Sequence record: NC_047754.1
Strand: one strand, 5' to 3'
DNA length: 64,000 nucleotides
Source: Escherichia phage phiAPCEc03
Part shown: in pieces, positions 2,337 to 16,955 of the stretch
How the letters are laid out: each line of letters opens with the position of its first letter
Position numbering within the stretch: position 1 is the first letter of the stretch
Position numbers and translations under genes: made by a program
The notes under the pieces: generated by a model
The model's database searches: none
What the model saw: only the letters and a program-made list of their open reading frames with translations
What the model was told of the DNA's origin: nothing

Positions 2337-2361
2337 AATTAATTTAAATAGGAAATAAAAT

Positions 2362-2601: not shown

Positions 2602-2606
2602 AACAA

Positions 2607-2684: not shown

Positions 2685-2691
2685 AATAATC

Positions 2692-2767: not shown

Positions 2768-2783
2768 ACTTTAAGGGAACACT

Positions 2784-3035
2784 ATGCACGTTTTTGAGTT
2801 TCGTAATAAAAGTACTGATAAGCGAGTTATCATTATTGGAGAAACATATCGAGCATATGAACAAACTGACGGCTCTGTTATCTTGAATGATGAGAAAGGA
2901 GGTTTTAGCTTTTATCCAGAAGAACCTTATGAAGAGTTTCGAAAACAATTTAACCTAGACTGGAGAAAGCATTTAAACACTGTTGCTCCATCTGTAGTAT
3001 TGCCAACTACCAGTACTGTACCCTCTAATGGCTGA
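2784..3035 (+). CDS. hypothetical protein
   Basis: 83-aa ORF with GGGAAC RBS-like sequence. Confidence 0.5.
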   Translation: MHVFEFRNKSTDKRVIIIGETYRAYEQTDGSVILNDEKGGFSFYPEEPYEEFRKQFNLDWRKHLNTVAPSVVLPTTSTVPSNG

Positions 3036-3192
3036 CAACCTAAAAGTAAAGATTGATAAACAAAAGAAACGTGTAGAAGTAGAGATTGGCGAAGAACGTG
3101 TTGCCTTTACTTTCGAGTTTCTTCAGCAGTTGGCTATGACAGTTATGACTGATAAGTCTCCTGTTATTGAAAAAGAAATCCCGTTGAAATAA
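3028..3192 (+). CDS. hypothetical small protein (54 aa)
   Basis: ATG overlaps the previous stop; ORF MADNLKVKIDKQ ends immediately before the next tRNA. Confidence 0.35.
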   Translation: MADNLKVKIDKQKKRVEVEIGEERVAFTFEFLQQLAMTVMTDKSPVIEKEIPLK

Positions 3193-3200
3193 CGGGTTCT

Positions 3201-3287
3201 GCTGGGTTGGCAGAATGGTTGAATGCACCTGATTTGTAATCAGGAGGAGTAATCCCGTTGCAGGTTCGAATCCTGTGCCCAGCACCA
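3201..3287 (+). tRNA. tRNA with anticodon UGU (Thr by anticodon) and an atypical long variable region
   Basis: Acceptor GCTGGGT/GCCCAGC, perfect anticodon arm CCTGA-TTTGTAA-TCAGG, T-arm GCAGG-TTCGAAT-CCTGT, CCA encoded; 15-nt variable region is unusual for Thr. Confidence 0.55.
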
Positions 3288-3301
3288 ATTTAAGGACTAT
3301 T

Positions 3302-3469
3302 ATGTTTAAACTGTTAGTAGTTATCTGGTATAGTCAATCAAATAGAGCGAATACCTCCCACGTTATAGACTTTAATACTAAAAATGAAGCTGAAAAAGCA
3401 TATGCTAATTTAATAGAACGCAATAAAGAATCTCGTAGTATAGTTTATGAAGTGACTAAACTTTATTAA
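3302..3469 (+). CDS. hypothetical protein
   Basis: ORF MFKLLVVIWY with AAGGA RBS; upstream part of the listed ORF overlaps the tRNA. Confidence 0.45.
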   Translation: MFKLLVVIWYSQSNRANTSHVIDFNTKNEAEKAYANLIERNKESRSIVYEVTKLY

Positions 3470-3477
3470 AAATTCAT

Positions 3478-3530
3478 TTGCTTTCTCTCTTATATTCTTG
3501 TTATAATATTTATATAAATTAATGAGAGGG
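3478..3530 (+). promoter_or_regulatory. T5-type early sigma70 promoter
   Basis: -35 TTGCTT, 18-bp spacer, -10 TATAAT, then conserved TATAAATTAATGAGAGGG box before the ATG at 3538. Confidence 0.6.
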
Positions 3531-3537
3531 AAACCAA

Positions 3538-3831
3538 ATGAAACGTTATCTTTCTGTTGTGTTCCAAACTGGTGGTCAACGCTATACCTATGAATTTCCT
3601 AGCTCTTGGAAGATCAAAGAAGGTGATCAAGTTGTTGTGTTAACACCGCGTGATGGGTACAAGGTAGTAACGGTTAAGCAAGTCTTCACAAAAGATTATG
3701 AACCGTCTAAGTCTATTAACTATAAGATGATTCATGGTGTAGTTCGTCAAGTACCACGAGCGGAAGTCGAAATCAAAGTAGATAAAGATGGTAAACTTAA
3801 ATATACCTCTTGCTTAGACGAGTTGCTATAA
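3538..3831 (+). CDS. hypothetical protein
   Basis: 97-aa ORF downstream of the promoter. Confidence 0.6.
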   Translation: MKRYLSVVFQTGGQRYTYEFPSSWKIKEGDQVVVLTPRDGYKVVTVKQVFTKDYEPSKSINYKMIHGVVRQVPRAEVEIKVDKDGKLKYTSCLDELL

Positions 3832-4037
3832 TGAGGATTACTTTCACAGAAAAGATCATGAGTAACGGTGTTATGATCATTACCGCATGGGATGGTAATC
3901 AGTGGTGTAGTGTTTCAGGTATTAAGCCTGAAGAACAAACACTAGAAAATATCTCAAAGATTAAGCGAAGAATGGCAGAACGTGCACGACTTCCAGGTGC
4001 ACCTAGAAATGGCAAACGTTCTGCTGTAAAATGTTAA
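3831..4037 (+). CDS. hypothetical protein
   Basis: ORF MRITFTEK; start overlaps the upstream stop (TAATG). Confidence 0.45.
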   Translation: MRITFTEKIMSNGVMIITAWDGNQWCSVSGIKPEEQTLENISKIKRRMAERARLPGAPRNGKRSAVKC

Positions 4038-4038
4038 T

Positions 4039-4115
4039 GCTTCGGTAGCTTAGCGATCTAAAGCACTCGGCTGATAACCGAGAGATCGGGGGTTTAAATC
4101 CCTCCCGGAGTACCA
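4039..4115 (+). tRNA. tRNA-Ile (anticodon GAU)
   Basis: Acceptor GCTTCGG/CCGGAGT with G-U pairs, perfect anticodon arm CTCGG-CTGATAA-CCGAG, T-arm GGGGG-TTTAAAT-CCCTC, CCA encoded. Confidence 0.8.
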
Positions 4116-4211
4116 AATTTAGGAATTAAGACTATGCGTCCAGGAAAGTTTAAAAAAGCTAATTGGTCTAAAGAGTATAAAGAATACTTACTTAGTCTAA
4201 TAAAACATAAT

Positions 4212-4287
4212 AGTTAGTTGGCAGAGTGGTTATGCACCTCCTTCATACGGAGCGACTACAGTGGTTCAAATCCACTACTAACTACCA
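4212..4287 (+). tRNA. tRNA-Met/Ile2-type (anticodon CAU)
   Basis: Acceptor AGTTAGT/ACTAACT, anticodon loop TTCATAC, T-arm AGTGG-TTCAAAT-CCACT, CCA encoded. Confidence 0.7.
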
Positions 4288-4324
4288 TTAAAAGAGCTAG
4301 AGATAGCTAAATATAGGAGCAATT

Positions 4325-4519
4325 ATGTTAACAGTTAAAATAATGTCCACTGATGGTGGTGAGCAGATTCATGTTGGTAAAAGCGTAGGGTTTAATCCCA
4401 GAAATAAAAGCATAGCTATTTCTGGAATAGATCAAGCAATCTTCTTAAAAGAAGATGAAGTAGCATACGTTATGAACCAAACTGGTAAGACAGTTTCTGT
4501 ATATCGTGGTAAACTATAA
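4325..4519 (+). CDS. hypothetical protein
   Basis: 64-aa ORF with GGAG RBS. Confidence 0.5.
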   Translation: MLTVKIMSTDGGEQIHVGKSVGFNPRNKSIAISGIDQAIFLKEDEVAYVMNQTGKTVSVYRGKL

Positions 4520-4561
4520 AGAATAAAGAGCTGAGCCAATTTCTAACATCGTGGAGATCTA

Positions 4562-4930
4562 ATGAAAGCATATCAAAATCTTAAATCTGGCGTAATTAAC
4601 CTTGTTCATGAAAATCAGATTATTCAGCTATACTCCGACAACGGCGAACTTAAGCAGAAAGTTCTAGTTGAAGATCTAGAAGGTATCACACCACAATTCG
4701 ATCCCGAAGCCTTCCGTGAGGTCAAAGTGGAAGTCGCCCCTCAAATCGAAGGTGGTCAACACCTAAACGTCAATGTGTTAAGCCGTGATCAGCTTTTGGA
4801 TGCGCAGAAACATCCTGAAAAATACCCTCAGTTGACCATCCGTGTCTCTGGCTACGCTGTTCGATTTAATGCACTGACTCGTGAACAACAGAACGACGTT
4901 ATTAGTCGTACATTTACTCAGGCGATGTAA
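4562..4930 (+). CDS. hypothetical protein
   Basis: 122-aa ORF with GGAGA RBS. Confidence 0.55.
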
Positions 4931-5011
4931 TGGGGTTTGGATACGATTTCTCCCAGCTACGCAAGGTAGTCGAGCAAACTCCGTTTATCTCCCAAGTTTT
5001 AGGAGAAATGT

Positions 5012-5326
5012 GTGGATCGAGCATTAAGACGTCATCACCGGCAACGTGTGAAGAACAACCGCAAGAAGTACTGGACAGCCTTTCCACATGAAGAAAGCCC
5101 TAAGCGGTTAGGTATTATCACTACTACTCCTTGCATCTGTTCTTGTTGGATGTGTGGTAACCCTCGCAAGTACTATAAGAATAGTAAAGCAGGCATGAAG
5201 ACCTCGGAGATCAGGAAAATGGAAGCGATGATTATGGGCATCTCAAATGATGAATTTGATGGCTTTGTAGGGTTCGGAGAAGGAATCAGCTCAGGCTGTT
5301 TCGAAGATGAACGCCCCGATCTGTAA
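5012..5326 (+). CDS. hypothetical basic protein with Cys cluster (GTG start)
   Basis: AGGAG RBS 6 nt before GTG; arginine-rich N-terminus and CxCxC/CxxC cysteines. Confidence 0.45.
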   Translation: MDRALRRHHRQRVKNNRKKYWTAFPHEESPKRLGIITTTPCICSCWMCGNPRKYYKNSKAGMKTSEIRKMEAMIMGISNDEFDGFVGFGEGISSGCFEDERPDL

Positions 5327-5447
5327 TTAATAACAAACCCCAGCTATTGAATAAGTAGTCTGTGGTTTTTCTGTATACAGGAAAATAGTTTATGTATAAT
5401 AAAATTCATCCACATTAGGTTAATTTAAAAGACTTAATGGAGGTAAT

Positions 5448-5795
5448 ATGAGCCGTACTTATCGTAGACAATCTGGTGATCAGTGGTGGAAGTCTAAAGA
5501 ACAATTCTCTCAAGAATATTCTTTCCTCAAAGAAAATGGCTACTGGATTCGTGTTATTTATGCCAAATCCTGGGACGACATCAAAAAAGAAATGAAGGAA
5601 GCAACCATTCGTAATGAGAAAAAGGATGGTTATAACTGGAATTCCATTAGTAAGAATGTTAAGTGGCACTCTAATAAAATGGTTCGTCAAGGGAATCGTC
5701 AAGAACTTCACCGCGTGATGAAAGATCCAGAAAATTACGACTATAATCGCGATCATGACATGCGTAAGCGTGGGTTATGGTGGTGCTATGACTAA
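5448..5795 (+). CDS. hypothetical protein
   Basis: 115-aa ORF with GGAGG RBS. Confidence 0.6.
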   Translation: MSRTYRRQSGDQWWKSKEQFSQEYSFLKENGYWIRVIYAKSWDDIKKEMKEATIRNEKKDGYNWNSISKNVKWHSNKMVRQGNRQELHRVMKDPENYDYNRDHDMRKRGLWWCYD

Positions 5796-5812
5796 ATTCT
5801 GAAATAATTCAT

Positions 5813-5865
5813 TTGCTAAACCTCTCTTTTCTTGCTATAATATATTTATAAATTGATGAGAGAGG
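5813..5865 (+). promoter_or_regulatory. T5-type early sigma70 promoter
   Basis: -35 TTGCTA, 17-bp spacer, -10 TATAAT, then ATAAATTGATGAGAGAGG box. Confidence 0.6.
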
Positions 5866-5871
5866 TTTGAA

Positions 5872-6153
5872 ATGAAAAATCGCCTAGACTGTGCCATTCA
5901 TGTTCTTGAACATGATGTTGCGGGAACCTGTATGTCTTACCACGAAGCAGGTCGTTTAATTAAAGAACGTGTGGCAGATGTGTGCGGATTGAAGATTACT
6001 GCTGAGGAAGCGGATGATCTTTTAGGTCAAGCACTGGAGAAAACCGAAATGTTCCTCTGCGATTCTTGTTCTTGGTGGTGTGAAGCTCACGAACGTTCTT
6101 TCAACGATTATGATGTATGTCGTGATTGTAGTGGGGAGGATGAAGATGAATAA
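5872..6153 (+). CDS. hypothetical Cys-rich protein
   Basis: 93-aa ORF downstream of the promoter; CDSCSWWC and CRDCS motifs. Confidence 0.55.
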   Translation: MKNRLDCAIHVLEHDVAGTCMSYHEAGRLIKERVADVCGLKITAEEADDLLGQALEKTEMFLCDSCSWWCEAHERSFNDYDVCRDCSGEDEDE

Positions 6154-6442
6154 GTTTATTATTGCACTGATGATCTCCGCAGTTAGTTTCGGTTCTCTGG
6201 CGTCTACCAAAGTTTCTATGAAAAATGGTAATGTTAAAGTCCAACAGAGCGGCATTATTACCGAGTATGGTAAAGTTCGTGATGTTAAAGAACGTAATGG
6301 TAAGGTAGAAATCTATACTAATAAAAACTTCTCTACTCCAGCCGTTACTATTAGCAAACGCGGTGAAATAACCACTCAACGTACTAATAGCTCCAGTTCT
6401 TTTACTTGTCGTTATGATTGCGACTTTGAAGGAGAAGAGTAA
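6146..6442 (+). CDS. secreted protein with signal peptide
   Basis: GGAGGA RBS; N-terminus MNKFIIALMISAVSFGSLAS is signal-peptide-like. Confidence 0.5.
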   Translation: MNKFIIALMISAVSFGSLASTKVSMKNGNVKVQQSGIITEYGKVRDVKERNGKVEIYTNKNFSTPAVTISKRGEITTQRTNSSSSFTCRYDCDFEGEE

Positions 6443-6443
6443 C

Positions 6444-6752
6444 ATGGAAAAGAACGTGAAAAGACTAAACATCAATAGCACGGTGCAGATTCCAGCAACT
6501 AAGGATGTTTTAACATTCCTACGAAGTGAAAACGCTCAGTTTTGGCATGATCATGTTGTAAAGAACGGTAGTATTCCAGATGTAGTTGCCTTTGCCAAAA
6601 AACGTATCGAAGAATATAAAGATCCAGAGATTAAAGATGGGATGATCACTATGCAATTGTGGGTAGCCATGAATACGTTTGGACCTACTATGAGTCTAGG
6701 GGTTACTCCACTATTTACTAATATTCTAATTAATGAAAAGGATCTAAAATGA
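6444..6752 (+). CDS. hypothetical protein
   Basis: ORF MEKNVKRL with GGAGAAG RBS. Confidence 0.5.
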   Translation: MEKNVKRLNINSTVQIPATKDVLTFLRSENAQFWHDHVVKNGSIPDVVAFAKKRIEEYKDPEIKDGMITMQLWVAMNTFGPTMSLGVTPLFTNILINEKDLK

Positions 6753-7033
6753 TTATCTCTCCCTTTGCTCTTTGGTTCGTCATTGGATCTATAGTAGCTA
6801 TTTACAGCTTGGTTGATGATCTGTATATTTCTAAGAATAAAGATGTAATATTATACGTTATACATAAAACTCGACCGTTAGATCTGCCTCCTCTTGATGA
6901 TAAAACATTACTCAGATGTGCTAGATCTATGATATTTATTGTGGATATTCTTCTAGGCCCAACATCTGTGTTTTTCTTTTATAGAAAGACTCGTAATATG
7001 AAAAAATTTAAAGCTGAAATGCAGAATACCTAA
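6749..7033 (+). CDS. membrane protein
   Basis: 94-aa ORF with hydrophobic segments; ATGA overlap with the upstream gene. Confidence 0.5.
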   Translation: MIISPFALWFVIGSIVAIYSLVDDLYISKNKDVILYVIHKTRPLDLPPLDDKTLLRCARSMIFIVDILLGPTSVFFFYRKTRNMKKFKAEMQNT

Positions 7034-7142
7034 AGAACTCGCGTAGGACCGAGTTGCGTCACCTGCAACTGTTACGGATAAGGGAGTCGTGCCCCTTAGT
7101 GCGGTAAGTGGTGAGGTGGCTCTAGCCCTAACTGGAGATAAT

Positions 7143-7487
7143 ATGACTATATTACTAATTCTTGTTACAACTTGGTTTTTAATCGGTGCTGTATATGCGA
7201 TAGCTATTATTAGACATTTGGACGAATACTCTGCTGAATGGTTTGTTAAGTATCTACGTATTGATGATCAAGAACATGAGTTTAAAGATGAAAGACAGAA
7301 AAAAGCAGTAAATAATATGACAGCCAAAGAATGCTTGTTCTACATGCGTATTGTAGGGTTCTTTGGACTATTAGTTGCTGGCCCAATTGGTTCTACCATT
7401 GCTCCATATAAAGAAACAGTTGCTGACATCAAATTGTGGAGAAATGCAGGGGTACTACGCAAAGCTAGAGAAACTAGTATTACATAA
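7143..7487 (+). CDS. membrane protein
   Basis: ORF MTILLILVTTWFLIGAVYAIAII with GGAGA RBS. Confidence 0.5.
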   Translation: MTILLILVTTWFLIGAVYAIAIIRHLDEYSAEWFVKYLRIDDQEHEFKDERQKKAVNNMTAKECLFYMRIVGFFGLLVAGPIGSTIAPYKETVADIKLWRNAGVLRKARETSIT

Positions 7488-7532
7488 GATTGACACTAAG
7501 TCAACTTACTAGCAAAAGCAAATAATGACAAA

Positions 7533-7568
7533 GCCCAGCCTGCACTTTTGCGACTGGGCTATTTTTAT
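7533..7568 (+). terminator. rho-independent terminator
   Basis: GC-rich hairpin GCCCAG...CTGGGC followed by a T-tract. Confidence 0.6.
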
Positions 7569-7581
7569 AATAAAATTTTAG

Positions 7582-7634
7582 TTGCTTAGATGCCCAAACT
7601 TTTATATAATATGTTTATAGATTGAGGCAAGAGG
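7582..7634 (+). promoter_or_regulatory. T5-type early sigma70 promoter
   Basis: -35 TTGCTT, 17-bp spacer, -10 TATAAT, downstream GATTGAGGCAAGAGG. Confidence 0.6.
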
Positions 7635-7641
7635 ATTAAAT

Positions 7642-8322
7642 ATGAGAATCATTTCTAAATTCGCCGATGTGTATGATTTGCAGAACAGTTTGTTCGACCC
7701 TGATCGTGTTTGGGAGCGTAAAACTGAAGAGCTAACAATAAAGGCTCCAGATGATGGCAACTACATGATTATGCAAGAACGTATAATTGCTCGTGTTGGT
7801 GAAAAGAACGGCTACTTTAAAATTCTACCGTTTTTCCTAGCAGGAGAGATTTACTGGATGTACCATATTGATGTATTGGATACTCAAGTAAAAACTTTCA
7901 ACCTAGACAAAGCATTAGAAGTTCTGAAAGAGAATGGATGGTCAACGGGGTTTTCTCTGCTAGATATAAATAGGGGGAAGCCAAAAGAATCTATCCTATC
8001 CTGGAAAGAGGAAGTTACCTCTAAAGCTGAAGAAGCCTTAGCTGAGTTAAGAGTACCCTTAGCGGTTCTAGACTCAGTAGTTCCAAATGATAAAGATAGT
8101 AATAAGTATTTCAAGGCTATAACTAACCCACGCCTACATCTATCAGGTATTCCGTGGCAGGAAGTTGAAAGCAACTTATACCGATTACACCAGAGGGTTG
8201 AGCAGTATATCTGGGGGGTGCTTGGAACTGGAGAACCAGATATTATTACCACTTCTGATAAAGACCGCCTAGCAGCACATGGATTTGATACGGTTACATC
8301 ATTTAGGAATATGAAAAGATGA
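7642..8322 (+). CDS. hypothetical protein
   Basis: 226-aa ORF downstream of the promoter. Confidence 0.6.
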   Translation: MRIISKFADVYDLQNSLFDPDRVWERKTEELTIKAPDDGNYMIMQERIIARVGEKNGYFKILPFFLAGEIYWMYHIDVLDTQVKTFNLDKALEVLKENGWSTGFSLLDINRGKPKESILSWKEEVTSKAEEALAELRVPLAVLDSVVPNDKDSNKYFKAITNPRLHLSGIPWQEVESNLYRLHQRVEQYIWGVLGTGEPDIITTSDKDRLAAHGFDTVTSFRNMKR

Positions 8323-8762
8323 TAAAAAACTTTATTAGTTCTCTATGGCACGGTAAGTGGTATATCCTGGGAGCAGGTCTAGCGATAGGCATCTGGTTCG
8401 GTGCTTATCACTTAGTAGATAAAGTGGAGACTTTAGCAGGAGATCTTGCGGTAGCTACTAAAAAGATTTCTTCTCTAGAGACTTCCCTTAATAAGGTGAA
8501 AGCTGAAAGTGAACTTCGTGAGACTAGAATGAATCAGTATTTCACAATGAATAATATTTCGCAAGCAGATCTAGACAAAAAGATTAAGCAGTTAGATAAA
8601 GCTCTTAGTCGCCAAGATATTATAGCTGCAAAACCTGGATTGGTAACATTAATTGCTAAAAAGCAGAGTAAAGAGTTCGAGGAAAGATTAGCGTGTTTAA
8701 CTGGAAGCTTGGAATACTGCTCGCAGCCGCAATCACAATCACAGGCTGCGCACAAGAAATAA
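8319..8762 (+). CDS. membrane-anchored coiled-coil protein
   Basis: N-terminal transmembrane segment then heptad-like region. Confidence 0.5.
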   Translation: MIKNFISSLWHGKWYILGAGLAIGIWFGAYHLVDKVETLAGDLAVATKKISSLETSLNKVKAESELRETRMNQYFTMNNISQADLDKKIKQLDKALSRQDIIAAKPGLVTLIAKKQSKEFEERLACLTGSLEYCSQPQSQSQAAHKK

Positions 8763-9046
8763 AGCCAGAACCTACACATGAACTACCAACAGCTCATGTG
8801 GACTGGCCTAAAGGACTTCAACCTTGTAGCTTTGACTTTAAGTTTGAAAAGAAATTAGCTACAAATGGAGAAGATGGCGTAGTAGTTGTTGTACCATATA
8901 AAGATTGGAATGCAAAAGCAAAATGTGAGGAAGCAGTTTACTCTTACATTTCACGACTGACTGGTATGGTTTGCTTCTACCGCCAAGATTTACAAGAAAA
9001 ACGTTGCTTAGTTTACTATCCACCAATTAACAATAGGAAAGATTAA
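8693..9046 (+). CDS. lipoprotein
   Basis: Signal peptide with lipobox ITGC. Confidence 0.5.
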   Translation: MFNWKLGILLAAAITITGCAQEIKPEPTHELPTAHVDWPKGLQPCSFDFKFEKKLATNGEDGVVVVVPYKDWNAKAKCEEAVYSYISRLTGMVCFYRQDLQEKRCLVYYPPINNRKD

Positions 9047-9798
9047 TGTCAGTATTAGTAGGTTTACATGGTGAAGCTGGTTCGGGAAAAGATACCGTTG
9101 CAAAATTAATTATCGATTGGTGTAATGACACGTATCCAACGTGTTTATCACGTCGTTATAGTTTTGCTAAGCCCGTTTATGAACTTGCATCCGTAATCCT
9201 CGGTGTAACTCCAGAGTTTCTAGGAGAGCGCAGAGGAAAAGAGATTGACCAATGGTTTACGGTCACACAATCTCAATTGGAGCGAGCCAGAGATGTGTGG
9301 TTTAAGTACGGTATCGATAAGTTTGAAGACTTCTCGTACGTTTGGCCTATTTTTGAGGAAAAATATCTTAATCCTCAACAACTTATCTCAGAGAATAAAG
9401 AAGACGGACTTTATAGTTTATTTATTTCTCCGAGAAAAATGTTACAGCTCGTAGGGACAGAGCTAGGAAGGCAGCTGGTGCATGAACGCATTTGGCTCAT
9501 AATTCTGGAGCAATCCATCGCTAAAGACGACCCAGATGTCGCCGTAATAACAGATGTTAGATTCCCCAATGAAGGAGAGTTACTCAGAGAAACAAACCAT
9601 TTAGATATGGATTCTTTGATAGTAAATGTAGTACCCGCTGAGCAGAAGTTCACTATTAAATCAGATCATCCATCTGAAAGTGGTATTCCTGCAAAATATA
9701 TTACTCACGAATTAGTTAATAAATTCGATGGTATCAATAACCTTAAACTAGAAGTTTATAACTTCTGTGACTTAGAGCTAGAACCACTAGTTGGATAA
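9046..9798 (+). CDS. dnk: deoxynucleoside monophosphate kinase
   Basis: P-loop GEAGSGKDT as in T4-type dNMP kinases; 250 aa matches the size I recall for T5 dNMP kinase. Confidence 0.65.
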   Translation: MSVLVGLHGEAGSGKDTVAKLIIDWCNDTYPTCLSRRYSFAKPVYELASVILGVTPEFLGERRGKEIDQWFTVTQSQLERARDVWFKYGIDKFEDFSYVWPIFEEKYLNPQQLISENKEDGLYSLFISPRKMLQLVGTELGRQLVHERIWLIILEQSIAKDDPDVAVITDVRFPNEGELLRETNHLDMDSLIVNVVPAEQKFTIKSDHPSESGIPAKYITHELVNKFDGINNLKLEVYNFCDLELEPLVG

Positions 9799-9810
9799 TC
9801 AAGGATCGCT

Positions 9811-10392
9811 ATGACTAATAAAAAAGAAGAAAAGACTAACCTGTTTCACTCCATTCGCCAATCTAACGAGTATACCTTTTTCTTTGATGAAGAACTCGGT
9901 CCGCCGGATGAATACCGTGATTTAGCAATGGTACTTATGCAGGCAAATGAGGACGATGAAATTAATCTGATGATTAATGGTCCGGGTGGTTATGTTGATA
10001 CTGCTGCACAGTTATCTAACTTAATTGCTAATTGCCGTGGAACAGTTATAGGGCATCTGATTGGTCCTAGTGCTTCTGCTTACTGCACAATTTTCCTATC
10101 TTGTCATGGATGGGTAGTACATCCACATGCTACGCTAATGGGACACACGTTCTCTGGCGGGTTCTGTGAGAAGGGTCAAGAAATTAAGAAAGCCTATGAA
10201 TCTTACAACAAGTTCGTAGAAGATATGATGCTAGATGTCTACTATCCATTCTTCTCAATAGATGAAATAGACGAGATGGTAAAAGACAACAAAAATATCT
10301 ATCTAGATAGCAAGGAAATCCATAAGCGTATTGAAATCTTGGCAAAATATCGATCTGAGCAATATAATAAAGCCCAGTTACCTCAATTCTAG
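9811..10392 (+). CDS. ClpP-like serine peptidase
   Basis: INGPGG motif, Ser in GPSASAY and His in GHTFSGG spaced as in ClpP. Confidence 0.5.
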   Translation: MTNKKEEKTNLFHSIRQSNEYTFFFDEELGPPDEYRDLAMVLMQANEDDEINLMINGPGGYVDTAAQLSNLIANCRGTVIGHLIGPSASAYCTIFLSCHGWVVHPHATLMGHTFSGGFCEKGQEIKKAYESYNKFVEDMMLDVYYPFFSIDEIDEMVKDNKNIYLDSKEIHKRIEILAKYRSEQYNKAQLPQF

Positions 10393-10419
10393 GAGCACAA
10401 CGAAGAGTAAGTAGTTTTA

Positions 10420-10452
10420 AGCCAGGGTTTAACGACCCTGGCTTTTCTTTTA
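10420..10452 (+). terminator. rho-independent terminator
   Basis: Hairpin AGCCAGGG...CCCTGGCT plus T-tract. Confidence 0.65.
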
Positions 10453-10513
10453 TCTAAAATTCTTCTTGACAACGACAAAATTTTATGCTCCAGAAGTGAT
10501 CTTTAAAAACACA

Positions 10514-10550
10514 TTGTAATTTTCCTCCAAAATTAGTATAATGGTACTGG
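10514..10550 (+). promoter_or_regulatory. sigma70-type promoter
   Basis: -35 TTGTAA, 17-bp spacer, -10 TATAAT; upstream TTGACA also present. Confidence 0.5.
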
Positions 10551-10566
10551 TTAGAGGAGGTTACAA

Positions 10567-11223
10567 TTGGAAAAGTTCTTACAATTATTAACGGTACTGC
10601 TCCAAGAAGCGAAAGATCCAGCATCGCTTCTTAAACGTCTGCTAACTATCTTAGTTGCTGTCATTATTTTCTTATTTGTTAGTAATACTAGCGAGGTGAT
10701 GTCATTCTTAAAGACTTTCTCCACGTCTGCGGTCCTACAGGATGTTCAAACTCAAAGGATAGATAACTTTCCTAATGTAGCTAGAGAAAAGAGCATGGTG
10801 CTTTTCTCCCAAACGGGTGCGGATGCTGTTTTTGTCGTCAAGTATAAACCCGATGCCGTTAATGATTATTCTAACATTATTGCATGGGAAAGCAATGCGC
10901 AATTAGATAGGGCTGACTTGGCTGATAAAGCGGTAAATAAAACGTCTGAGCTATTTAGACGTCACTTAGACGGCTTCAACTACGCATCGGATTTAAGTGT
11001 AAAAGTAAATAAATACATGGGGTTAAATATACCTGCGTTTAAGAACGTTACTTTTAATTACATATACACTTGTCCGTATTTCAATCTAAACAATATCTAT
11101 GCTGGATATATTGGTATTGCTTGGAAAGATAATCCTGTAGATGCAGCCAATTCTGAGAAATTTAACGAGTATTTAACAAAGCTCTGTTCCCCACAACAGA
11201 GATCTTTAGGTAGATCAATATGA
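10567..11223 (+). CDS. putative holin (TTG start)
   Basis: AGGAGG RBS; one hydrophobic transmembrane segment; immediately upstream of and overlapping the endolysin gene. Confidence 0.4.
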   Translation: MEKFLQLLTVLLQEAKDPASLLKRLLTILVAVIIFLFVSNTSEVMSFLKTFSTSAVLQDVQTQRIDNFPNVAREKSMVLFSQTGADAVFVVKYKPDAVNDYSNIIAWESNAQLDRADLADKAVNKTSELFRRHLDGFNYASDLSVKVNKYMGLNIPAFKNVTFNYIYTCPYFNLNNIYAGYIGIAWKDNPVDAANSEKFNEYLTKLCSPQQRSLGRSI

Positions 11224-11633
11224 GTTTTAAATTTGGTAAAAATAGCGAAAAACAATTAGCTACCGTTAAGCCAGAGCTACAAAAAGTAGCTCGTAGAGCT
11301 TTAGAATTATCTCCATATGATTTCACGATCGTACAGGGTATTCGTACAGTAGCACAAAGTGCCCAGAATATTGCTAATGGTACTTCATTTTTAAAAGATC
11401 CTAGTAAAAGCAAGCATATTACTGGGGATGCCCTTGATTTTGCTCCATACATTAATGGCAAAATTGATTGGAATGATTTAGAAGCATTTTGGGCAGTTAA
11501 AAAGGCTTTTGAACAAGCGGGTAAAGAACTAGGCATTAAACTTCGTTTTGGTGCTGATTGGAATGCTTCGGGAGATTATCACGACGAAATAAAACGTGGT
11601 ACCTATGATGGCGGTCATGTCGAACTAGTTTAA
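11220..11633 (+). CDS. lys: endolysin, L-alanyl-D-glutamate peptidase (M15-like)
   Basis: 137 aa; metal-ligand pattern HITGDALDF and GGHVE; matches size and features I recall for T5 endolysin. Confidence 0.7.
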   Translation: MSFKFGKNSEKQLATVKPELQKVARRALELSPYDFTIVQGIRTVAQSAQNIANGTSFLKDPSKSKHITGDALDFAPYINGKIDWNDLEAFWAVKKAFEQAGKELGIKLRFGADWNASGDYHDEIKRGTYDGGHVELV

Positions 11634-11644
11634 TTAATAACTAA

Positions 11645-11667
11645 GGCGGGAATATTCCCGCCTTTTT
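11645..11667 (+). terminator. rho-independent terminator
   Basis: Hairpin GGCGGGAATATTCCCGCC plus TTTTT. Confidence 0.7.
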
Positions 11668-11710
11668 AGGCAAAGGGGGCTTTAATAATTTTTGAAGATA
11701 GGAGAAAGCC

Positions 11711-12127
11711 ATGTTTGCAGAACTATTCACTATGATGCTGCTAGGTATCTGGAAAATAAATCTAGTAGTATTCGTTTTAATGATAGTCTTTACTATCCTT
11801 GCATTAACTACCCGAAATAGCTTATTAATAAAGGTTATTCACGGACTAGAGTATATAATTATGGGTTCATTCGGCGTTTGTAAATGCAATTGCCATAGAG
11901 ATACGAAATATTGTTGGTTATGGATGGAACTAGAGAATCCTATATCCATAGCTTTGGCTGTTTCATTCGGTATGATTCTTATGGCTCTTACTCTAGCATT
12001 AATACCTTTGATGTTAGCTGGGGGAGTTACAGCGTATTTCACCCTTTTCTCCCCGATACTTATGTACTCAATTTACCCAATAACTATGTATCTAGTTAGG
12101 AAAAGATTTATACATGTAGTAGATTAA
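11711..12127 (+). CDS. polytopic membrane protein
   Basis: 138-aa ORF with several hydrophobic segments, GGAGAAAG RBS. Confidence 0.5.
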   Translation: MFAELFTMMLLGIWKINLVVFVLMIVFTILALTTRNSLLIKVIHGLEYIIMGSFGVCKCNCHRDTKYCWLWMELENPISIALAVSFGMILMALTLALIPLMLAGGVTAYFTLFSPILMYSIYPITMYLVRKRFIHVVD

Positions 12128-12140
12128 GATAAAAAAGTAG

Positions 12141-12195
12141 TTGACTTTTAGCCCTAGTTATTATATAATATATACATAAATTAGTTAAGAGAGGT
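12141..12195 (+). promoter_or_regulatory. T5-type early sigma70 promoter
   Basis: -35 TTGACT, 17-bp spacer, -10 TATAAT, downstream CATAAATTAGTTAAGAGAGG. Confidence 0.6.
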
Positions 12196-12202
12196 ATATA
12201 TT

Positions 12203-12634
12203 ATGTCTGATCGTTTCTATACTCAAATGGCGGAACATTTTCGTATACCACATTACGAGCTAAACATTGCACTCCGTGATCATGACTCTCCTGAGTACAA
12301 AAAGCTCGAAAAGAAAGCGGAAAAATCTATTGATACAAAGGTAGGTGCATCTATGTCTAAGGGCAAAAAGTTAACTCGTCTTGATCTTAATAAAATTTTA
12401 ACTGAACTTTTGGGTACTGATATTGAAGGTGCTAAATTACCGCTTCTTGTACTAGAGACTATGATTAAAAAGGTCAAAAATAAAGAGTATAAAAAGGTAG
12501 AAGTCCCAGAAGGCAGATTAAAAGCTCCTTATCAGGAAGCATTAACCGAGTGTTTGGGTGTAAATCTTGATCTGAGCACCGCAACCGTAAAAACTATGAG
12601 AAACTTCTTAGAGGCCATTAATAACTATGAGTAA
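12203..12634 (+). CDS. hypothetical protein
   Basis: 143-aa ORF downstream of the promoter. Confidence 0.6.
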   Translation: MSDRFYTQMAEHFRIPHYELNIALRDHDSPEYKKLEKKAEKSIDTKVGASMSKGKKLTRLDLNKILTELLGTDIEGAKLPLLVLETMIKKVKNKEYKKVEVPEGRLKAPYQEALTECLGVNLDLSTATVKTMRNFLEAINNYE

Positions 12635-12917
12635 ATTAGTATATCTATTGAAAGGTTCCACTTGCAATCCTTGCAAAATGTTTGAGCCAGTATTTGATAA
12701 AGTAGTCAGTGACTATAATTTGGAAATCCATAAAGAGACTGATAATACAGAATTAATGCAGAAATTTGGTGTGCGCCAAGTTCCTGTAGTAGTTCTGGCG
12801 GATCGCTTACCTAATGGTCGAGTAGAAGCCAATCATATTCTGATTGGACGTCAGCTTCGTAAAGAAACTATGCACGAAGCTATTAAAAATTTCCTGGATG
12901 ATAATCCAGAGGACTAA
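12627..12917 (+). CDS. thioredoxin/glutaredoxin-fold protein
   Basis: CNPC active-site-like motif near the N-terminus, 96 aa. Confidence 0.5.
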   Translation: MSKLVYLLKGSTCNPCKMFEPVFDKVVSDYNLEIHKETDNTELMQKFGVRQVPVVVLADRLPNGRVEANHILIGRQLRKETMHEAIKNFLDDNPED

Positions 12918-12924
12918 TAAACAA

Positions 12925-12956
12925 AGCCTGATCTTAGCTGATCAGGCTTTTATTTT
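12925..12956 (+). terminator. rho-independent terminator
   Basis: Hairpin AGCCTGATC...GATCAGGCT plus T-tract. Confidence 0.7.
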
Positions 12957-12958
12957 AC

Positions 12959-13010
12959 TTGCTTTTTGCTAAAAATTTTGGTATAATACTTATATAAATT
13001 GATGAGAGAG
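12959..13010 (+). promoter_or_regulatory. T5-type early sigma70 promoter
   Basis: -35 TTGCTT, 17-bp spacer, -10 TATAAT, downstream TATAAATTGATGAGAGAG. Confidence 0.55.
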
Positions 13011-13098
13011 ACATTAATATGATTATGTCACATATCTTTGTATGGATTTTAGTCATATTAATGGCTTTCTTTGCCCTTCAAGAAACAGGAATATTACG

Positions 13099-13476
13099 AT
13101 GAACTATGCATATCTAATTATTAATAACAATGTAGTTTGTGGTACTCGCGCCGTTGAGATGGGTATTACAGAAGAAAAGTATAAGTCACTGCCAGAAAAG
13201 GAACAACAATATTATGTTGAAGAAGCTGCTTGGGAATATGCTGATGTTTATCCCGAACAACGTGAAGATCGCGTTACTATTGTTGTTTCTTTGGGGCTGG
13301 TTGGCTGTGATACCGAAGTTGATACAGACCTAGAGACTTTAGAAGAGTGGGGAGAATTGGACATTTCAGTTAAAAACTCTTTAATCCGTGAGGCTTTTTG
13401 GGAAGCAGTTGACTGCCATGTTGTCTTTGAGCCTAACGATGAGGAAGCTGAGAAGCATACTAACCACTGGAGATAA
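13099..13476 (+). CDS. hypothetical acidic protein
   Basis: ORF MNYAYLIINN with AGGAA RBS; a 27-codon hydrophobic mini-ORF lies upstream at 13019-13102. Confidence 0.5.
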   Translation: MNYAYLIINNNVVCGTRAVEMGITEEKYKSLPEKEQQYYVEEAAWEYADVYPEQREDRVTIVVSLGLVGCDTEVDTDLETLEEWGELDISVKNSLIREAFWEAVDCHVVFEPNDEEAEKHTNHWR

Positions 13477-13480
13477 TTAA

Positions 13481-13726
13481 ATGTTAGCGGAACAAGCAAA
13501 ACGTTTAGCCAGGATAAATAGAGCTACACTCCTTAAGAGTAGAAAGAAACCATATAAATACGTTAAAAAGAGAATAGTTTCTTCTGTGGAGATTGGGGGT
13601 TCTTTTGTACAGTTTAATCGTAATGAAATTAGTTATGAAGCTATAAAAGCTCTATATAAAGAAGGTTATACTCTCCAACTATCTAATGATTATGGCACAA
13701 CTATTTTAACTGTTATTTGGGAATAA
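13481..13726 (+). CDS. hypothetical protein
   Basis: 81-aa ORF. Confidence 0.45.
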   Translation: MLAEQAKRLARINRATLLKSRKKPYKYVKKRIVSSVEIGGSFVQFNRNEISYEAIKALYKEGYTLQLSNDYGTTILTVIWE

Positions 13727-13728
13727 TT

Positions 13729-14592
13729 ATGAAAAAAGAATTTAATGTACATAAAACTCTAGTAGTGCCAGATGACGCCAACCTGTTTTTCGTTGGTGAT
13801 ATTCATGGATGCAACGATTTACTAGAAGATGCGTTGAAATTAGCTGGGTATAATAGCAAAAAAGATTGTGTAGTATGTGTTGGTGACTTAATTGACCGAG
13901 GCACACAAAACTTACAAGTTTTAGCCAAATTCCTGTATAATCCACGTTTTATTAGTGTCCGTGGTAATCATGACCAATTTATGATTGCAGGAGATTGGGC
14001 TAATTGGATGTATAATGGTGGTATGTGGGCTATGAATGAACTAGATGCAGACACCATTAAAAATATTGCCGAAGATATGGCTGAAAAAATGCCAGTATTC
14101 CTAACTGTTAGACATCGTGGTAAGAAATTTGGTGTTGTTCACGGTGGTGTACCTTTTACGTACAAAGAATGTGGTAATGAAGTAGAAACCCCAGTATGGG
14201 ATAATCTTATTGCACAAATAGAAGCAGCTAAGGAAGACCCACATGATCATCCTGGATACCATGTTGAGCCATATTTATGGGATCGAGATGTAATCCAAGA
14301 AATAGGCTTCTACTTGTCCAAAAATGGTGAGGAACACCCGTATTTCCAGCGTTATGCAGGATTTAAAGAAAAATACATGGTAGAAGTGCCAGAAGTTAAA
14401 GGTGTAGATTTCGTGTTTCACGGACATACTGGGGTTCCTTACCCACTTCTTTATAAAAACCGTGTTTATCTTGATACTGGCGGTGTTTTCAACGGGCAGT
14501 TGACGGTTGCGCAAGTTAACGATGAAACAGGTAAAATCACCACATTTACTACACTCCGGGAAGATAGTTGTGGTGTACAGAGGGTTCTTTAA
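13729..14592 (+). CDS. Ser/Thr protein phosphatase (calcineurin-like)
   Basis: Motifs GDIHG, GDLIDRG and RGNHD. Confidence 0.65.
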   Translation: MKKEFNVHKTLVVPDDANLFFVGDIHGCNDLLEDALKLAGYNSKKDCVVCVGDLIDRGTQNLQVLAKFLYNPRFISVRGNHDQFMIAGDWANWMYNGGMWAMNELDADTIKNIAEDMAEKMPVFLTVRHRGKKFGVVHGGVPFTYKECGNEVETPVWDNLIAQIEAAKEDPHDHPGYHVEPYLWDRDVIQEIGFYLSKNGEEHPYFQRYAGFKEKYMVEVPEVKGVDFVFHGHTGVPYPLLYKNRVYLDTGGVFNGQLTVAQVNDETGKITTFTTLREDSCGVQRVL

Positions 14593-14879
14593 TGAATGAT
14601 TGCACAAAAGATACACAAGAACAGTTAGAATCAATGCATATTGATACCCTTCGTTGGAAGGCGTTAGTCAATGCTTTCAGTAAAGGGGATACTGGGGTAT
14701 GGTACTCTGGGATAACAGTTAACTTTTGTTTTCATTCTCCTGCTGAGATAGAGATAGAAACAAGGCTTACTACCTACCTTAATGAGGTAGACCTTAAGGA
14801 AGGAGAGACTCCCGAAGAGTTTAAAACTAGAGTATTAACTTCTTGGGTTGATAATTTAATACAAAAAAGGAGTAAGTGA
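14592..14879 (+). CDS. hypothetical protein
   Basis: ORF MNDCTKDTQ; start overlaps the previous stop. Confidence 0.45.
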   Translation: MNDCTKDTQEQLESMHIDTLRWKALVNAFSKGDTGVWYSGITVNFCFHSPAEIEIETRLTTYLNEVDLKEGETPEEFKTRVLTSWVDNLIQKRSK

Positions 14880-15469
14880 TGAAGGTTAAATTCTGGTCAG
14901 ACTTGCACCTAGACCACCCTGGAGCACTACGTTTTCGTCCGTGGTTTAAGAACATGAAAGAGCACGATGAATATATTCTAGATACTCTTTCGAAGCATAT
15001 TGGTAAACGAACAAAACTTATTTTGCTAGGAGATATTGCAGTAGGTCGTGAAGGTCTGGCCAAATTAAAGTCGGTTATCCACAATGTTCCTAATCAACTG
15101 ATTATGGGCAATCACGATGCGGAACGTCAAGGACTGAGCATCAGGGACTTAGCGGAAGTTTATGACGATATTCAGGCTCTAGGTAAACAGACTGGAGGTG
15201 GCAAAAAGTTTTGGTTATCTCACTGCCCTTTGCACCCCAATGAACTTCGTGGTAAACTAAATATTCACGGACATGTACATACTATTTCTTTACGTGACCC
15301 ACGTTATATTAATGTCTCATTTGAAATGAGTAAAACTCCAGTTCCACTAGAGGATATTGTGTCTGGTAAGTTTACTAGCTATGATAGAGTAGTTAATTGT
15401 ACTACCGGCGAAGTATTACAAATATGGGAAGATGTAGCTGCTGTATTACGTGGTGATATAAATGTCTGA
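14876..15469 (+). CDS. metallophosphoesterase
   Basis: Motifs SDLHLD, GDIAVG, GNHD and GHVH. Confidence 0.6.
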   Translation: MMKVKFWSDLHLDHPGALRFRPWFKNMKEHDEYILDTLSKHIGKRTKLILLGDIAVGREGLAKLKSVIHNVPNQLIMGNHDAERQGLSIRDLAEVYDDIQALGKQTGGGKKFWLSHCPLHPNELRGKLNIHGHVHTISLRDPRYINVSFEMSKTPVPLEDIVSGKFTSYDRVVNCTTGEVLQIWEDVAAVLRGDINV

Positions 15470-15577
15470 GTATATAGCTGAGGCTATTATTAAACGAATC
15501 ATACAAACAGTAGCAATACTTATAATCATTTGTATTGCTATTGGTACAGGATTGGGCATTTTAATTAAAAGTTTTAT

Positions 15578-15630
15578 TTGCTAAAATGCTTAAGTTTCTG
15601 TATAATTACTTTATAAATTGATGAGAAGGA
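15578..15630 (+). promoter_or_regulatory. T5-type early sigma70 promoter
   Basis: -35 TTGCTA, 17-bp spacer, -10 TATAAT, downstream TTATAAATTGATGAGAAGG. Confidence 0.6.
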
Positions 15631-15636
15631 ATCAAA

Positions 15637-16068
15637 ATGAACAAAGTTGATAAAGCTCTAGTTTTCGCAGCAGCAGATAAGTTTGAACAAGTTAAGGCAA
15701 CTTTCCGAACCTTGTTCCAGTCTTACGTTCAAGATAAGTCTAATCCTATCTCTGAACGTTTGATGGTCTGGGAATGTCATGCTTGCAATGCCCTATTAAT
15801 TGCAGATTATCGTAGCGATATAGATAAAGATCTGTGTGAAATTCTTATCGCTGAGGAGGCAGAACGTTATCAGTTAATCTCTTTCCAAGATTTGGCGGAG
15901 CATATCATTCCTGATGATCTTTGGGATAAATACTATGGCGATCCTGAAGATGAAGGAATGACTCCAGAAGCCTGTATTGAGCTAATCTGCAAAAATCATC
16001 CTGAAATTGCAGAGAAATTTGAAAAAGTTTTTGCTTCTGAGTTCTCCGGCGTTGTTAACGATTGGTAA
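15637..16068 (+). CDS. hypothetical acidic protein
   Basis: 143-aa ORF downstream of the promoter. Confidence 0.6.
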   Translation: MNKVDKALVFAAADKFEQVKATFRTLFQSYVQDKSNPISERLMVWECHACNALLIADYRSDIDKDLCEILIAEEAERYQLISFQDLAEHIIPDDLWDKYYGDPEDEGMTPEACIELICKNHPEIAEKFEKVFASEFSGVVNDW

Positions 16069-16085
16069 GTAATTAAAAAATTCAG

Positions 16086-16140
16086 TTGCTTTAAGCCTTA
16101 AAATTCTGTATAATAAGTTCATAAATTAATGAGAGAGGAA
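16086..16140 (+). promoter_or_regulatory. T5-type early sigma70 promoter
   Basis: -35 TTGCTT, 17-bp spacer, -10 TATAAT, downstream CATAAATTAATGAGAGAGG. Confidence 0.6.
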
Positions 16141-16146
16141 ATTATA

Positions 16147-16422
16147 ATGGAAAACATGACTAAAGACTTCGACGCCTCTAACCTTACCAAGACTGAAATG
16201 GCCAATGTATTAGCAATTCTCCTCGACATGCAAGGATTTGAGGGGCAACTGATGAAAATGTCCATCCCAGCAATGAAAAAGATGTACGATTCTCTTAACA
16301 AGAACGCTATGGCCTTTAACTTAGCAAAACAAGAGGCACGCTTTGCTAAGGAGCATCAAGCAGTGGCAGAACGCCGGGCAGCTAGCTTTGAGCGTGAAGT
16401 TAAGCAATTAAAGAAAAAATGA
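16147..16422 (+). CDS. hypothetical protein
   Basis: ORF MENMTKDF with GAGAGG RBS. Confidence 0.55.
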   Translation: MENMTKDFDASNLTKTEMANVLAILLDMQGFEGQLMKMSIPAMKKMYDSLNKNAMAFNLAKQEARFAKEHQAVAERRAASFEREVKQLKKK

Positions 16423-16955
16423 TAACACAAGAAAGATTAAAAGAATTATTGGAATACCGCCCGGAAACGGGCGAGTTTATTAGATTAGTAAGTATAGGTA
16501 ATCAAAAAGCTGGTAGTATTGCTGGCTGTCTAAGAAAGACTGGGTATATAGAGATAAGAGTAGATAAAGTAGGTTACAAAGCACATCGACTAGCCTTCCT
16601 CTATATGGAAGGTTATATTCCCGAAATAATAGACCACGTAAATCATATACGGAGTGATAATAGGTGGGCTAACCTTAGAGAATCTAACAACCAAGAAAAT
16701 TCTAGAAATAGAACAGCAAGGAGCAAATCAGGGTATTTGGGAATCTTTTGGCATAAACAAAAGCAAAAATGGGAAGTAAGGGTTGTAGATTCATACAAAA
16801 AGTTAGTACATGGTGGGTATTTTGATTTCTTAGATCTAGAATTAGCGGTTCAAAGAGCTAATAAACTTCGTTTAGAGCTACATGGGTCTAACGCTGTTGT
16901 AGAAACTTTTGATCATACAAAACTCTTTCCTACTTTAGAGGAACTAAATAAATGA
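16419..16955 (+). CDS. HNH homing endonuclease with AP2-like DNA-binding domain
   Basis: HNH core IDHVNH...N-RWAN; C-terminal region GYLGIFWHKQKQKWEVRV resembles an AP2 domain; paralogous to the minus-strand ORF at 31964-32461. Confidence 0.6.
   Translation: MITQERLKELLEYRPETGEFIRLVSIGNQKAGSIAGCLRKTGYIEIRVDKVGYKAHRLAFLYMEGYIPEIIDHVNHIRSDNRWANLRESNNQENSRNRTARSKSGYLGIFWHKQKQKWEVRVVDSYKKLVHGGYFDFLDLELAVQRANKLRLELHGSNAVVETFDHTKLFPTLEELNK

Follow-up and report, generated by a model that had tools for sequence, protein, structure and literature searches.

Promoter N25 of bacteriophage T5 has been studied for decades; widely used expression vectors and a large share of the work on abortive initiation are based on it, and its initial transcribed sequence was reportedly described as a determinant of promoter escape by Kammerer and colleagues in 1986. 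Here we analyse a family of related sites in a 64,000-nucleotide stretch of Escherichia phage phiAPCEc03 (sequence record NC_047754.1; the whole stretch is called the window below), in which a conserved box follows the -10 hexamer of seven promoters. N25 is a near-consensus promoter with an UP element (Hsu & Han, PMC12464699); it is escape-rate-limited and exceptionally efficient, with escape at +11. Its native transcribed sequence begins AUAAAUU and is purine-rich and C-poor, as at the window sites, with the first C not before +30, and replacement of +3 to +20 by an 'anti' sequence (N25anti) lowered productive RNA about 10-fold (PMC12464699). In the T5 record AY587007, T5P6-T5P38 and T5P41 are labelled as early promoters ('putative early promoter'), and two of the dispersed repeats listed there, b (TATAATATTTATATAAATTGATGAG) and c (TGTATAATA.ATT.ATAAATTTGAGAGAG), coincide exactly with the -10 hexamer plus the box. 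For phage AKFV33, Niu et al. 2012 listed 32 promoters with the consensus TTGCTw, a 17-18 bp spacer, TATAATA, AAAAATT near -43 and TAAATT at +1 (PMC3326045), the same pattern as that noticed in phiAPCEc03. The T5 annotation and the AKFV33 consensus thus already contain the observation, the one in a sequence record, the other in a publication. The AKFV33 paper treats the +1 region merely as 'AT-rich' and does not split +1 to +7 from the Shine-Dalgarno (SD) sequence, and class specificity and the occurrence at transfer RNA (tRNA) promoters are absent from its account.

Bases 3000-17000 of the window share 89-96% identity with many T5-like phages (Demerecviridae, Tequintavirus), the plus strand of the window corresponding to the conventional minus strand of these phages. 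The seven sites, named here by the first base of the -35 hexamer, are T5-type early promoters and as such already known. Each is the positional ortholog of an annotated T5 promoter, mostly a few substitutions away from the feature extracted from AY587007, and was read in the sequence as a -35-like hexamer, a spacer, TATAAT, a discriminator, an ATAAATT-type box and an ATG, as follows.

3464 to 3540, plus strand: early cassette 3478, ortholog of T5P16; -35 TTGCTT at 3478-3483, 18 bp spacer, TGT extended -10, -10 hexamer at 3502-3507, predicted +1 at 3514 (ATAAATTAATGAGAGGG), ATG at 3538.
5799 to 5874, plus strand: early cassette 5813, ortholog of T5P14; -35 TTGCTA at 5813-5818, 17 bp spacer, TGC extended -10, -10 hexamer at 5836-5841, predicted +1 at 5848 (ATAAATTGATGAGAGAGG), ATG at 5872.
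7568 to 7644, plus strand: early cassette 7582, ortholog of T5P13; -35 TTGCTT at 7582-7587, 17 bp spacer, -10 hexamer at 7605-7610, predicted +1 at 7617 (ATAGATTGAGGCAAGAGG), ATG at 7642; a hairpin lies just 5' at about 7537-7565.
12127 to 12205, plus strand: early cassette 12141, ortholog of T5P11; -35 TTGACT at 12141-12146, 17 bp spacer, -10 hexamer at 12164-12169, predicted +1 at 12176 (ATAAATTAGTTAAGAGAGG), ATG at 12203.
12923 to 13021, plus strand: terminator hairpin (12923-12950) adjoining early cassette 12959, ortholog of T5P10; -35 TTGCTT at 12959-12964, 17 bp spacer, TGG extended -10, -10 hexamer at 12982-12987, predicted +1 at 12994 (ATAAATTGATGAGAGAGA), ATG at 13019 opening a 27-codon open reading frame (ORF).
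15564 to 15639, plus strand: early cassette 15578, ortholog of T5P9; -35 TTGCTA at 15578-15583, 17 bp spacer, -10 hexamer at 15601-15606, predicted +1 at 15613 (ATAAATTGATGAGAAGG), ATG at 15637 (DUF7020 protein).
16072 to 16149, plus strand: early cassette 16086, ortholog of T5P8; -35 TTGCTT at 16086-16091, 17 bp spacer, -10 hexamer at 16109-16114, predicted +1 at 16121 (ATAAATTAATGAGAGAGG), ATG at 16147 (DUF7179 protein).

An earlier note, made from the letters alone, had pointed out these seven coordinates with a 17-18 bp spacer, TATAAT and a conserved box, all of which were found in the sequence and far above chance. The -10 hexamer carries no mismatch in any of the seven, the spacer is 17 bp in all except 3478, and an A/T-rich discriminator of 6 nt always separates the hexamer from the box. 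The -35 hexamer is TTGCTT at 3478, 7582, 12959 and 16086, TTGACT at 12141 and TTGCTA at 5813 and 15578. The box itself reads ATAAATT(G/A)ATGAGAGAGG, with the variant ATAGATT at 7582; as a small correction to the note, it is preceded by C in just 2/7 sites and by T in the others, and a purine run with GAGG (for example GATGAGAGAGG) follows ATAAATT at every site, leading to an ATG at +25 to +28, that is, 24-27 nt past the predicted +1.

A motif search, which the earlier note had proposed, recovered this architecture in scans of the window and of T5 above shuffled sequence and background. The pattern TATAATN3TN2ATAAATTRATGAGAG at up to 3 mismatches was found 6 times, where dinucleotide shuffles predict 0.02, and the 18-mer box 5 times against 0.14. 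Scored with a position matrix derived from them, the seven sites reached 25.6-38.7 bits, compared with a maximum of 18.4 bits in 50 shuffled windows. To keep a further test free of circularity, sites in the window plus T5 were picked solely by TTG[AC][CT]N-17/18-TATAAT (n=46); in 30 of them, a gap of exactly 6 nt after the -10 hexamer is followed by ATAAATT (no more than 1 mismatch), against a background of about 0.004 per position. A generic sigma-70 hexamer scan of the window was not above chance (55 found versus 60.7 expected) and so did not discriminate; the signal resides in the extended architecture.

The same matrix added three window sites, so that the span of 3478-16140 proposed in the earlier note holds for its seven members and the whole set is larger. 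One of the additions drives a tRNA and one is an orphan.

557 to 613, plus strand: early-type promoter before tRNA-Ser (site 594); A-tract, -35 TTGCTA at 571-576, 17 bp spacer, -10 hexamer at 594-599, discriminator ATATTT, predicted +1 at 606 (ATAAATTC), running into tRNA-Ser(GCT) at 614-702.
33526 to 33602, minus strand: early cassette 33565, ortholog of T5P41 (llp promoter); -35 TTGCTT at 33588-33583, 17 bp spacer, -10 hexamer at 33565-33560, discriminator AGATTC as in N25, predicted +1 at 33553 (ATAAATTAGAAATGGAGAG), ATG at 33528 opening an ORF with a lipoprotein signal (Llp-like).
26290 to 26365, minus strand: orphan site 26334, within the pre-early (terminal repeat) region; TATAAT at 26334-26329, ATACTT, then ATAAATTAATGAGAA.

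Site 594 is identical to the T5 site 37200(-), upstream of the T5 tRNA-Ser. The eight sites of the early (second-step-transfer) region are all on the coding (+) strand, in the orientation of the early genes and directly upstream of an ORF or a tRNA.

The comparison with T5 extends beyond position. The T5 early promoters (T5P8-T5P38 and T5P41; AY587007, AY543070, NC_005859) show the same elements in the same register from the A-tract through the ATG. The N25 promoter sequence is 100% identical to the T5 feature T5P33 in AY587007 and has the register of the seven sites: TTGCTT, 17 bp, TATAAT, 6 nt, then ATAAATTTGAGAGAGGAG. The match to T5 early, N25-type promoters drawn in the earlier note is thus borne out by the seven positional orthologs and by the register of N25. 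N25 differs in that its box shows a 2-nt difference and is 2 nt shorter ahead of the purine run, and in that its discriminator, AGATTC, places a G at -5 that the seven window sites do not have; at 12959, the gene downstream is unlike that of T5. No N25 ortholog was found in the window at up to 3 mismatches, and the window does not extend to that part of the genome; N25 (T5P33) is a paralog of the window sites located outside the window.

The cassette is a compact unit of about 90 bp from the A-tract to the start codon. In order, it consists of an A-tract at -45 to -37, TTGCTw, a 17-bp spacer (with an extended -10 TG in some sites), TATAAT followed by A, the 6-nt discriminator, an A start, ATAAATT at +1 to +7, a C-poor purine run of the GATGAGAGAGG type with the SD, and the start codon. 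When 31 window and T5 sites were selected on columns -12 to +19 alone, the unselected upstream columns contained A at -45 to -42 in 87-94% of sites and TTGCT at -35 to -31 in 84-97%. At least 4 consecutive A are present in the A-tract of 6/8 window sites, the weakest being that of 12959, where the terminator T-run sits. The A-tract is placed like an UP-element proximal subsite, which we take to be contacted by the C-terminal domain of the RNA polymerase alpha subunit.

Conservation within the cassette is strongly position-specific. Mean pairwise identity among the seven paralogs is 1.00 for the -10 hexamer, 0.96 for +1 to +7 and 0.80 for the -35 hexamer, falling to 0.60 for +8 to +18, 0.58 for the A-tract, 0.52 for the discriminator, 0.40 for the spacer and 0.27-0.28 for the flanks. 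This mosaic of identity by segment argues for selection on particular positions over recent copying. Orthologs of eight sites were also compared with T5, JLBYU40 and HildyBeyeler (S131 was left out here and in the breakpoint comparison below, and the T5 left terminal repeat (LTR) was analysed via its identical right copy). The A-tract showed no differences (0/231), and each of the two hexamers one (1/126 for the -35, 1/126 for the -10), as did +1 to +7 (1/147), as against 13/357 in the spacer, 6/126 in the discriminator, 11/231 in +8 to +18 and 15/189 in +19 to +27.

These patterns divide the box into two overlapping signals, a promoter module at +1 to +7 and a purine/SD module at +8 to +18, the latter drifting at the rate of the spacer while the former does not. 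ATAAATT lies directly ahead of tRNA genes lacking an SD or ATG at window site 594, at T5 37200, 31953 and 41506, and at Athena L007:15953 (a Vibrio phage, see below); at 594, the tRNA-Ser 5' end is at about +9 of the transcript, with no SD and no ATG. Its presence at these tRNA-driving promoters indicates that ATAAATT is a promoter or transcript-start feature rather than a translational one. The starts of 6 promoter-proximal genes were compared with 43 internal starts, using a crude gene set from window 1-26000. ATAAATT occurs upstream of 5/6 promoter-proximal and 0/43 internal starts, and GAGAG upstream of 4/6 and 1/43, whereas a GGAG/GAGG/AGGA core 5-10 nt before the start codon is found at 6/6 promoter-proximal and 86% of internal starts; the SD core is lacking at 594 and 26334(-), neither of which has an ORF. 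C content in the 30 nt upstream of the start is 4% for promoter-proximal and 16% for internal genes. The purine run thus doubles as the SD, its GAGAG form belonging to the promoter cassette. The suggestion in the earlier note that the box also provides the ribosome-binding context is consequently right for the 3' half, which contains the SD, and does not apply to the ATAAATT half, which stands at tRNAs and is absent from internal sites. Promoter-proximal and internal genes are indistinguishable in predicted folding energy around the start (p = 0.26), and in an Rfam search of window 1-36000 only tRNAs reached the gathering threshold; a structured RNA leader was rejected on these two results.

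An ATG also occurs inside the box (ATT[G/A]ATGAGAG), at +9 to +11 of 3478, 5813, 12959, 15578 and 16086. After 16086, this ATG (16129) shares the reading frame of the gene, so that a mechanical ORF call starts 18 nt too early; the start codon is 16147, according to the T5 annotation and the SD spacing. The cassette is therefore useful in annotation, as it marks the starts of early transcription units and gives correct start codons such as this one.

In T5, the box is restricted to the early promoter class. When all 42 annotated T5 promoters (34 early, 5 pre-early and 3 late) were scored with the window-derived matrix, 19/34 early promoters reached at least 15 bits and 16 exceeded the 18.4-bit shuffle maximum, compared with best scores of 13.4 bits among the pre-early and 7.6 bits among the late promoters.

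The early-class architecture also recurs in two further Demerecviridae lineages, with Vibrio and Providencia hosts. A BLAST search with the 80-bp cassette 5796-5875 retrieved 614 phage records, including Klebsiella, Vibrio, Aeromonas and Providencia phages. For the family comparison, hexamer-selected sites were taken from 40 kb each of Vibrio phage Athena (Ermolyevavirinae) and Providencia phage PR1 (Priunavirus). ATA is found at +1 to +3 in 14/17 Athena and 5/10 PR1 sites, against a background of 0.02-0.03; the +1 to +20 consensus is ATAAAtTgAAgAaA in Athena and ATaaAtTga in PR1, and the sites of both phages are 75-84% purine over +8 to +20, low in C and preceded by A-tracts. Beyond what we found in print, the constrained, translation-independent +1 to +7 set against a drifting SD module, and the early-class architecture with its tRNA-driving copies in the Vibrio- and Providencia-infecting lineages, are modest additions; the three extra members, including the tRNA-driving 594 and the orphan 26334(-), are a small one. 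They leave the picture of classic T5 early promoters unchanged.

Taken together, the cassettes are very probably host-RNA-polymerase (sigma-70) promoters of the T5-like early gene class. The host holoenzyme would be recruited via the UP element, the -35 hexamer and the perfect -10 hexamer, and transcription would begin at the A 7 nt past the -10 hexamer. By analogy with N25, +1 to +7 may determine which start site is chosen and how fast initial transcription and promoter escape proceed. The purine run at +8 to +18 would extend the escape-favouring transcribed sequence, C content over +1 to +20 of the window sites being 2.5%, and act as the ribosome-binding site, the product being a leader of about 25 nt, presumably unstructured, with a built-in SD. 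The great strength ascribed to such promoters in the earlier note is documented in the literature for N25. For each window site, we infer strong firing from the predicted A early in infection; a literature search found no genome-wide mapping of T5 transcription start sites.

Several points weigh against this account. The T5 features orthologous to the seven sites themselves bear the label 'putative'. The role of +1 to +7 would be an extrapolation from N25 across a difference in the box (ATAAATTTGAG versus ATAAATTGATGAG) and the G at -5; the functional data are those for N25 and artificial variants, as distinct from the GATGAGAGAGG version of the window. Site 26334(-) carries the box without a good -35 hexamer and without a gene. 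In the ortholog comparison, the core elements differ from neutral non-coding segments (p = 4e-6) and +1 to +7 from +8 to +18 (p = 0.033), but +1 to +7 alone is just borderline against neutral (p = 0.058), and all of these p-values are merely indicative because the compared relatives are not independent. High-throughput work on other promoters has linked slower escape to T richness in the first bases and to a T-G step around +6/+7 (PMC5961368), and in view of these trends 'optimised for escape' may be too simple a description.

For the same reason, the conserved U6-U7-G8 could mark a checkpoint rather than an optimum. That ATAAATTG encodes an initiation or promoter-proximal pause, making the early promoters escape-limited checkpoints, would fit several features: TAAATT at +2 to +7 matches the -10 hexamer TATAAT at 4/6 positions (T1, A2, A4 and T6), so that sigma-70 region 2 could re-bind; the U7-G8 step is a Y-G pause motif; a T-rich first 7 nt with TG near +6/+7 correlates with slow escape via initiation pausing (PMC5961368); N25 is described as escape-rate-limited (PMC12464699); and in N25anti a C7-G8 step is tied to a paused, unproductive complex. 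The study that saw the N25anti pause, however, found none on native N25, where the Y-G step lies one base further downstream, so that the register is not conserved. A published sigma-dependent or 7-nt pause on native N25 was dropped as an argument, as the papers found concern the artificial N25anti sequence alone. We regard the pause as speculative and improbable. A different function is implied if the box is mainly translational, its A/U-rich 5' end being an S1-binding enhancer and GAGAGG the SD, kept for strong ribosome loading at operon-first genes. GAGG does lie 5-9 nt before the ATG at 7/7 sites in a short, C-poor leader, and the earlier note had made a translation role its secondary proposal. 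ATAAATT is nevertheless kept at tRNA-driving promoters without SD or ATG in the window, T5 and Athena, and it is fixed at 6 nt from the -10 hexamer at a variable distance from the ATG. It is the SD half that drifts at the spacer rate, internal genes have ordinary GGAG/AGGA SDs without the box, and leader folding energy resembles that of internal starts. The tRNA-driving copies and the pattern of constraint contradict a purely translational role, and we consider even a mainly translational one highly improbable.

It has also to be asked whether the discriminator and +1 to +7 form an early-class mark, read by a phage factor such as gpT5.026 or by a DNA-binding repressor for joint early shut-off. 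In T5 the box occurs in early promoters and is missing from the pre-early and late classes, its conservation exceeds known sigma-70 needs, and two further lineages of the family have it as well. Klimuk et al. reported that the discriminator is the main difference between early and late promoters of T5, the early ones sharing a distinct one, and that the RNA polymerase-binding protein gpT5.026 weakens the RNA polymerase-discriminator interaction and tunes the early/late balance, its loss raising early transcripts about 5-fold (PMC7472727). The window contains a gpT5.026 ortholog at 18088-18549(+), within the long operon that follows the 16086 promoter, with a calculated mass of 18178.1 Da and pI of 5.95, compared with the published 18178.3 Da and 5.93; 16086 is the final box promoter ahead of about 6 kb of early genes that include it. 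Against such a mark, the in vitro effect of gpT5.026 was not strong and its binding site is remote from the DNA (PMC7472727), the discriminator ranks among the most variable segments (paralog identity 0.52, with 6/126 substitutions), and the region contains no operator-like dyad symmetry. N25, moreover, needs nothing beyond pure E. coli holoenzyme for full activity, and uninfected cells support it fully as well (PMC12464699), indicating that the box works without a phage factor. A regulatory mark is compatible with the sigma-70 promoter explanation, and we hold it to be unlikely. Somewhat less likely still is a combined proposal, in which the invariant ATAAATT(G) is an early-class checkpoint (a pause or an escape-limited step) across several Demerecviridae lineages (Escherichia/Salmonella, Providencia and Vibrio phages), exploited by phage RNA polymerase-binding proteins such as gpT5.026 to shut off early promoters together. 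If true, it would be a concrete mechanism for the still unexplained T5 early-to-late switch. The likeness of the sites might, finally, be a by-product of recent copying of a promoter cassette, as a dispersed repeat or mobile cassette with an unselected box. T4 early promoters use host sigma-70, have an A-rich upstream element and conservation past the hexamers, and occur in many copies, often beside terminators, and mobile promoter cassettes of T4 (PeSL) are said to have been described by Arbiol and colleagues in 2010. The T4 promoters resemble the window sites in those traits, without sequence relationship. The T5 annotators did list the strings as dispersed repeats a, b and c, and the slot right after the 12959 promoter holds different genes in T5, JLBYU40, HildyBeyeler and phiAPCEc03. 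The mosaic of identity (spacer 0.40 and flanks 0.27 versus 0.96-1.00 in +1 to +7 and the -10 hexamer) and the recurrence of the pattern, with unrelated flanks, in a Vibrio phage of another subfamily speak against copying. Relative to T5, JLBYU40 and HildyBeyeler, only 1 of about 12-14 distinct indel breaks falls at a cassette. In contrast to PeSL, a test for cassette-linked gene shuffling was thus negative in this phage, one slot excepted; mobility or recombination boundaries were rejected as a general explanation, with about 12 other breaks inside operons and 12959 (+13 to +32) as the sole recurrent slot, and an unselected box is extremely unlikely.

In phiAPCEc03, this slot (13019-13476) holds the 27-codon ORF, which is hydrophobic, and a 125-amino-acid DUF7167 protein; T5 has nothing there, the promoter abutting ORF032, JLBYU40 has two ORFs and HildyBeyeler a putative homing endonuclease.

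Further along, window 17000-41000 contains the A1 DNA-transfer gene followed by receptor-binding, terminase and portal genes, and from this gene content the assembly order is early region, terminal-repeat (pre-early) region and late region. The terminal-repeat region spans about 22.2-32.3 kb of the window, as placed from the position of one T5 ortholog, and the T5 ortholog of the orphan 26334(-) lies within the terminal repeat, at about LTR coordinate 5999. The orphan has a poor -35 (TAGCCA) and no SD or ORF downstream. Its element reads TATAATATACTTATAAATTAATGAGAA, followed by an AATAA/TATAAGAAA-rich stretch and then three TTATCCACA motifs (26150-26365, minus strand), which we take to be DnaA-box-like. 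It could be the source of a non-coding transcript or an origin-related element.

Other promoters of the window have no box. Those among the hexamer-selected window sites are 19509(+) and 50260(+). The former (19509-19570, plus strand) is a plausible sigma-70 promoter with TTGACG, 17 bp and TGGTATAAT, ahead of a GTG-start ORF. The latter (50260-50330, plus strand), ortholog of the T5 late promoter T5P39, reads TTGATA, 17 bp, TATAAT, AATTGT and then ATCTAAGAGGAGAAATTAACTATG, a leader that presumably resembles the synthetic RBSII of pQE/pDS expression vectors. At 10514-10570(+), the holin/endolysin promoter, ortholog of T5P12, has TTGTAA, 17 bp, TATAAT and GGTACT without an ATAAATT box. The box-less promoters 10514(+) and 19509(+) may belong to a different kinetic class. 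At the window edge, which cuts the element, positions 1-75(+) contain a terminator hairpin (2-33), TATAAT (39-44), GTATTT and ATACAACTAACTAGGGG, with an ATG at 75; the element resembles a diverged member in which the terminator stem takes up the -35 region.

Rfam calls a further tRNA at 709-783 that was unreported by ARAGORN. The tRNA region (594-4290) is much shorter than in T5, the promoters 594 and 3478 lying about 2.9 kb apart, compared with about 8.7 kb for their T5 orthologs.

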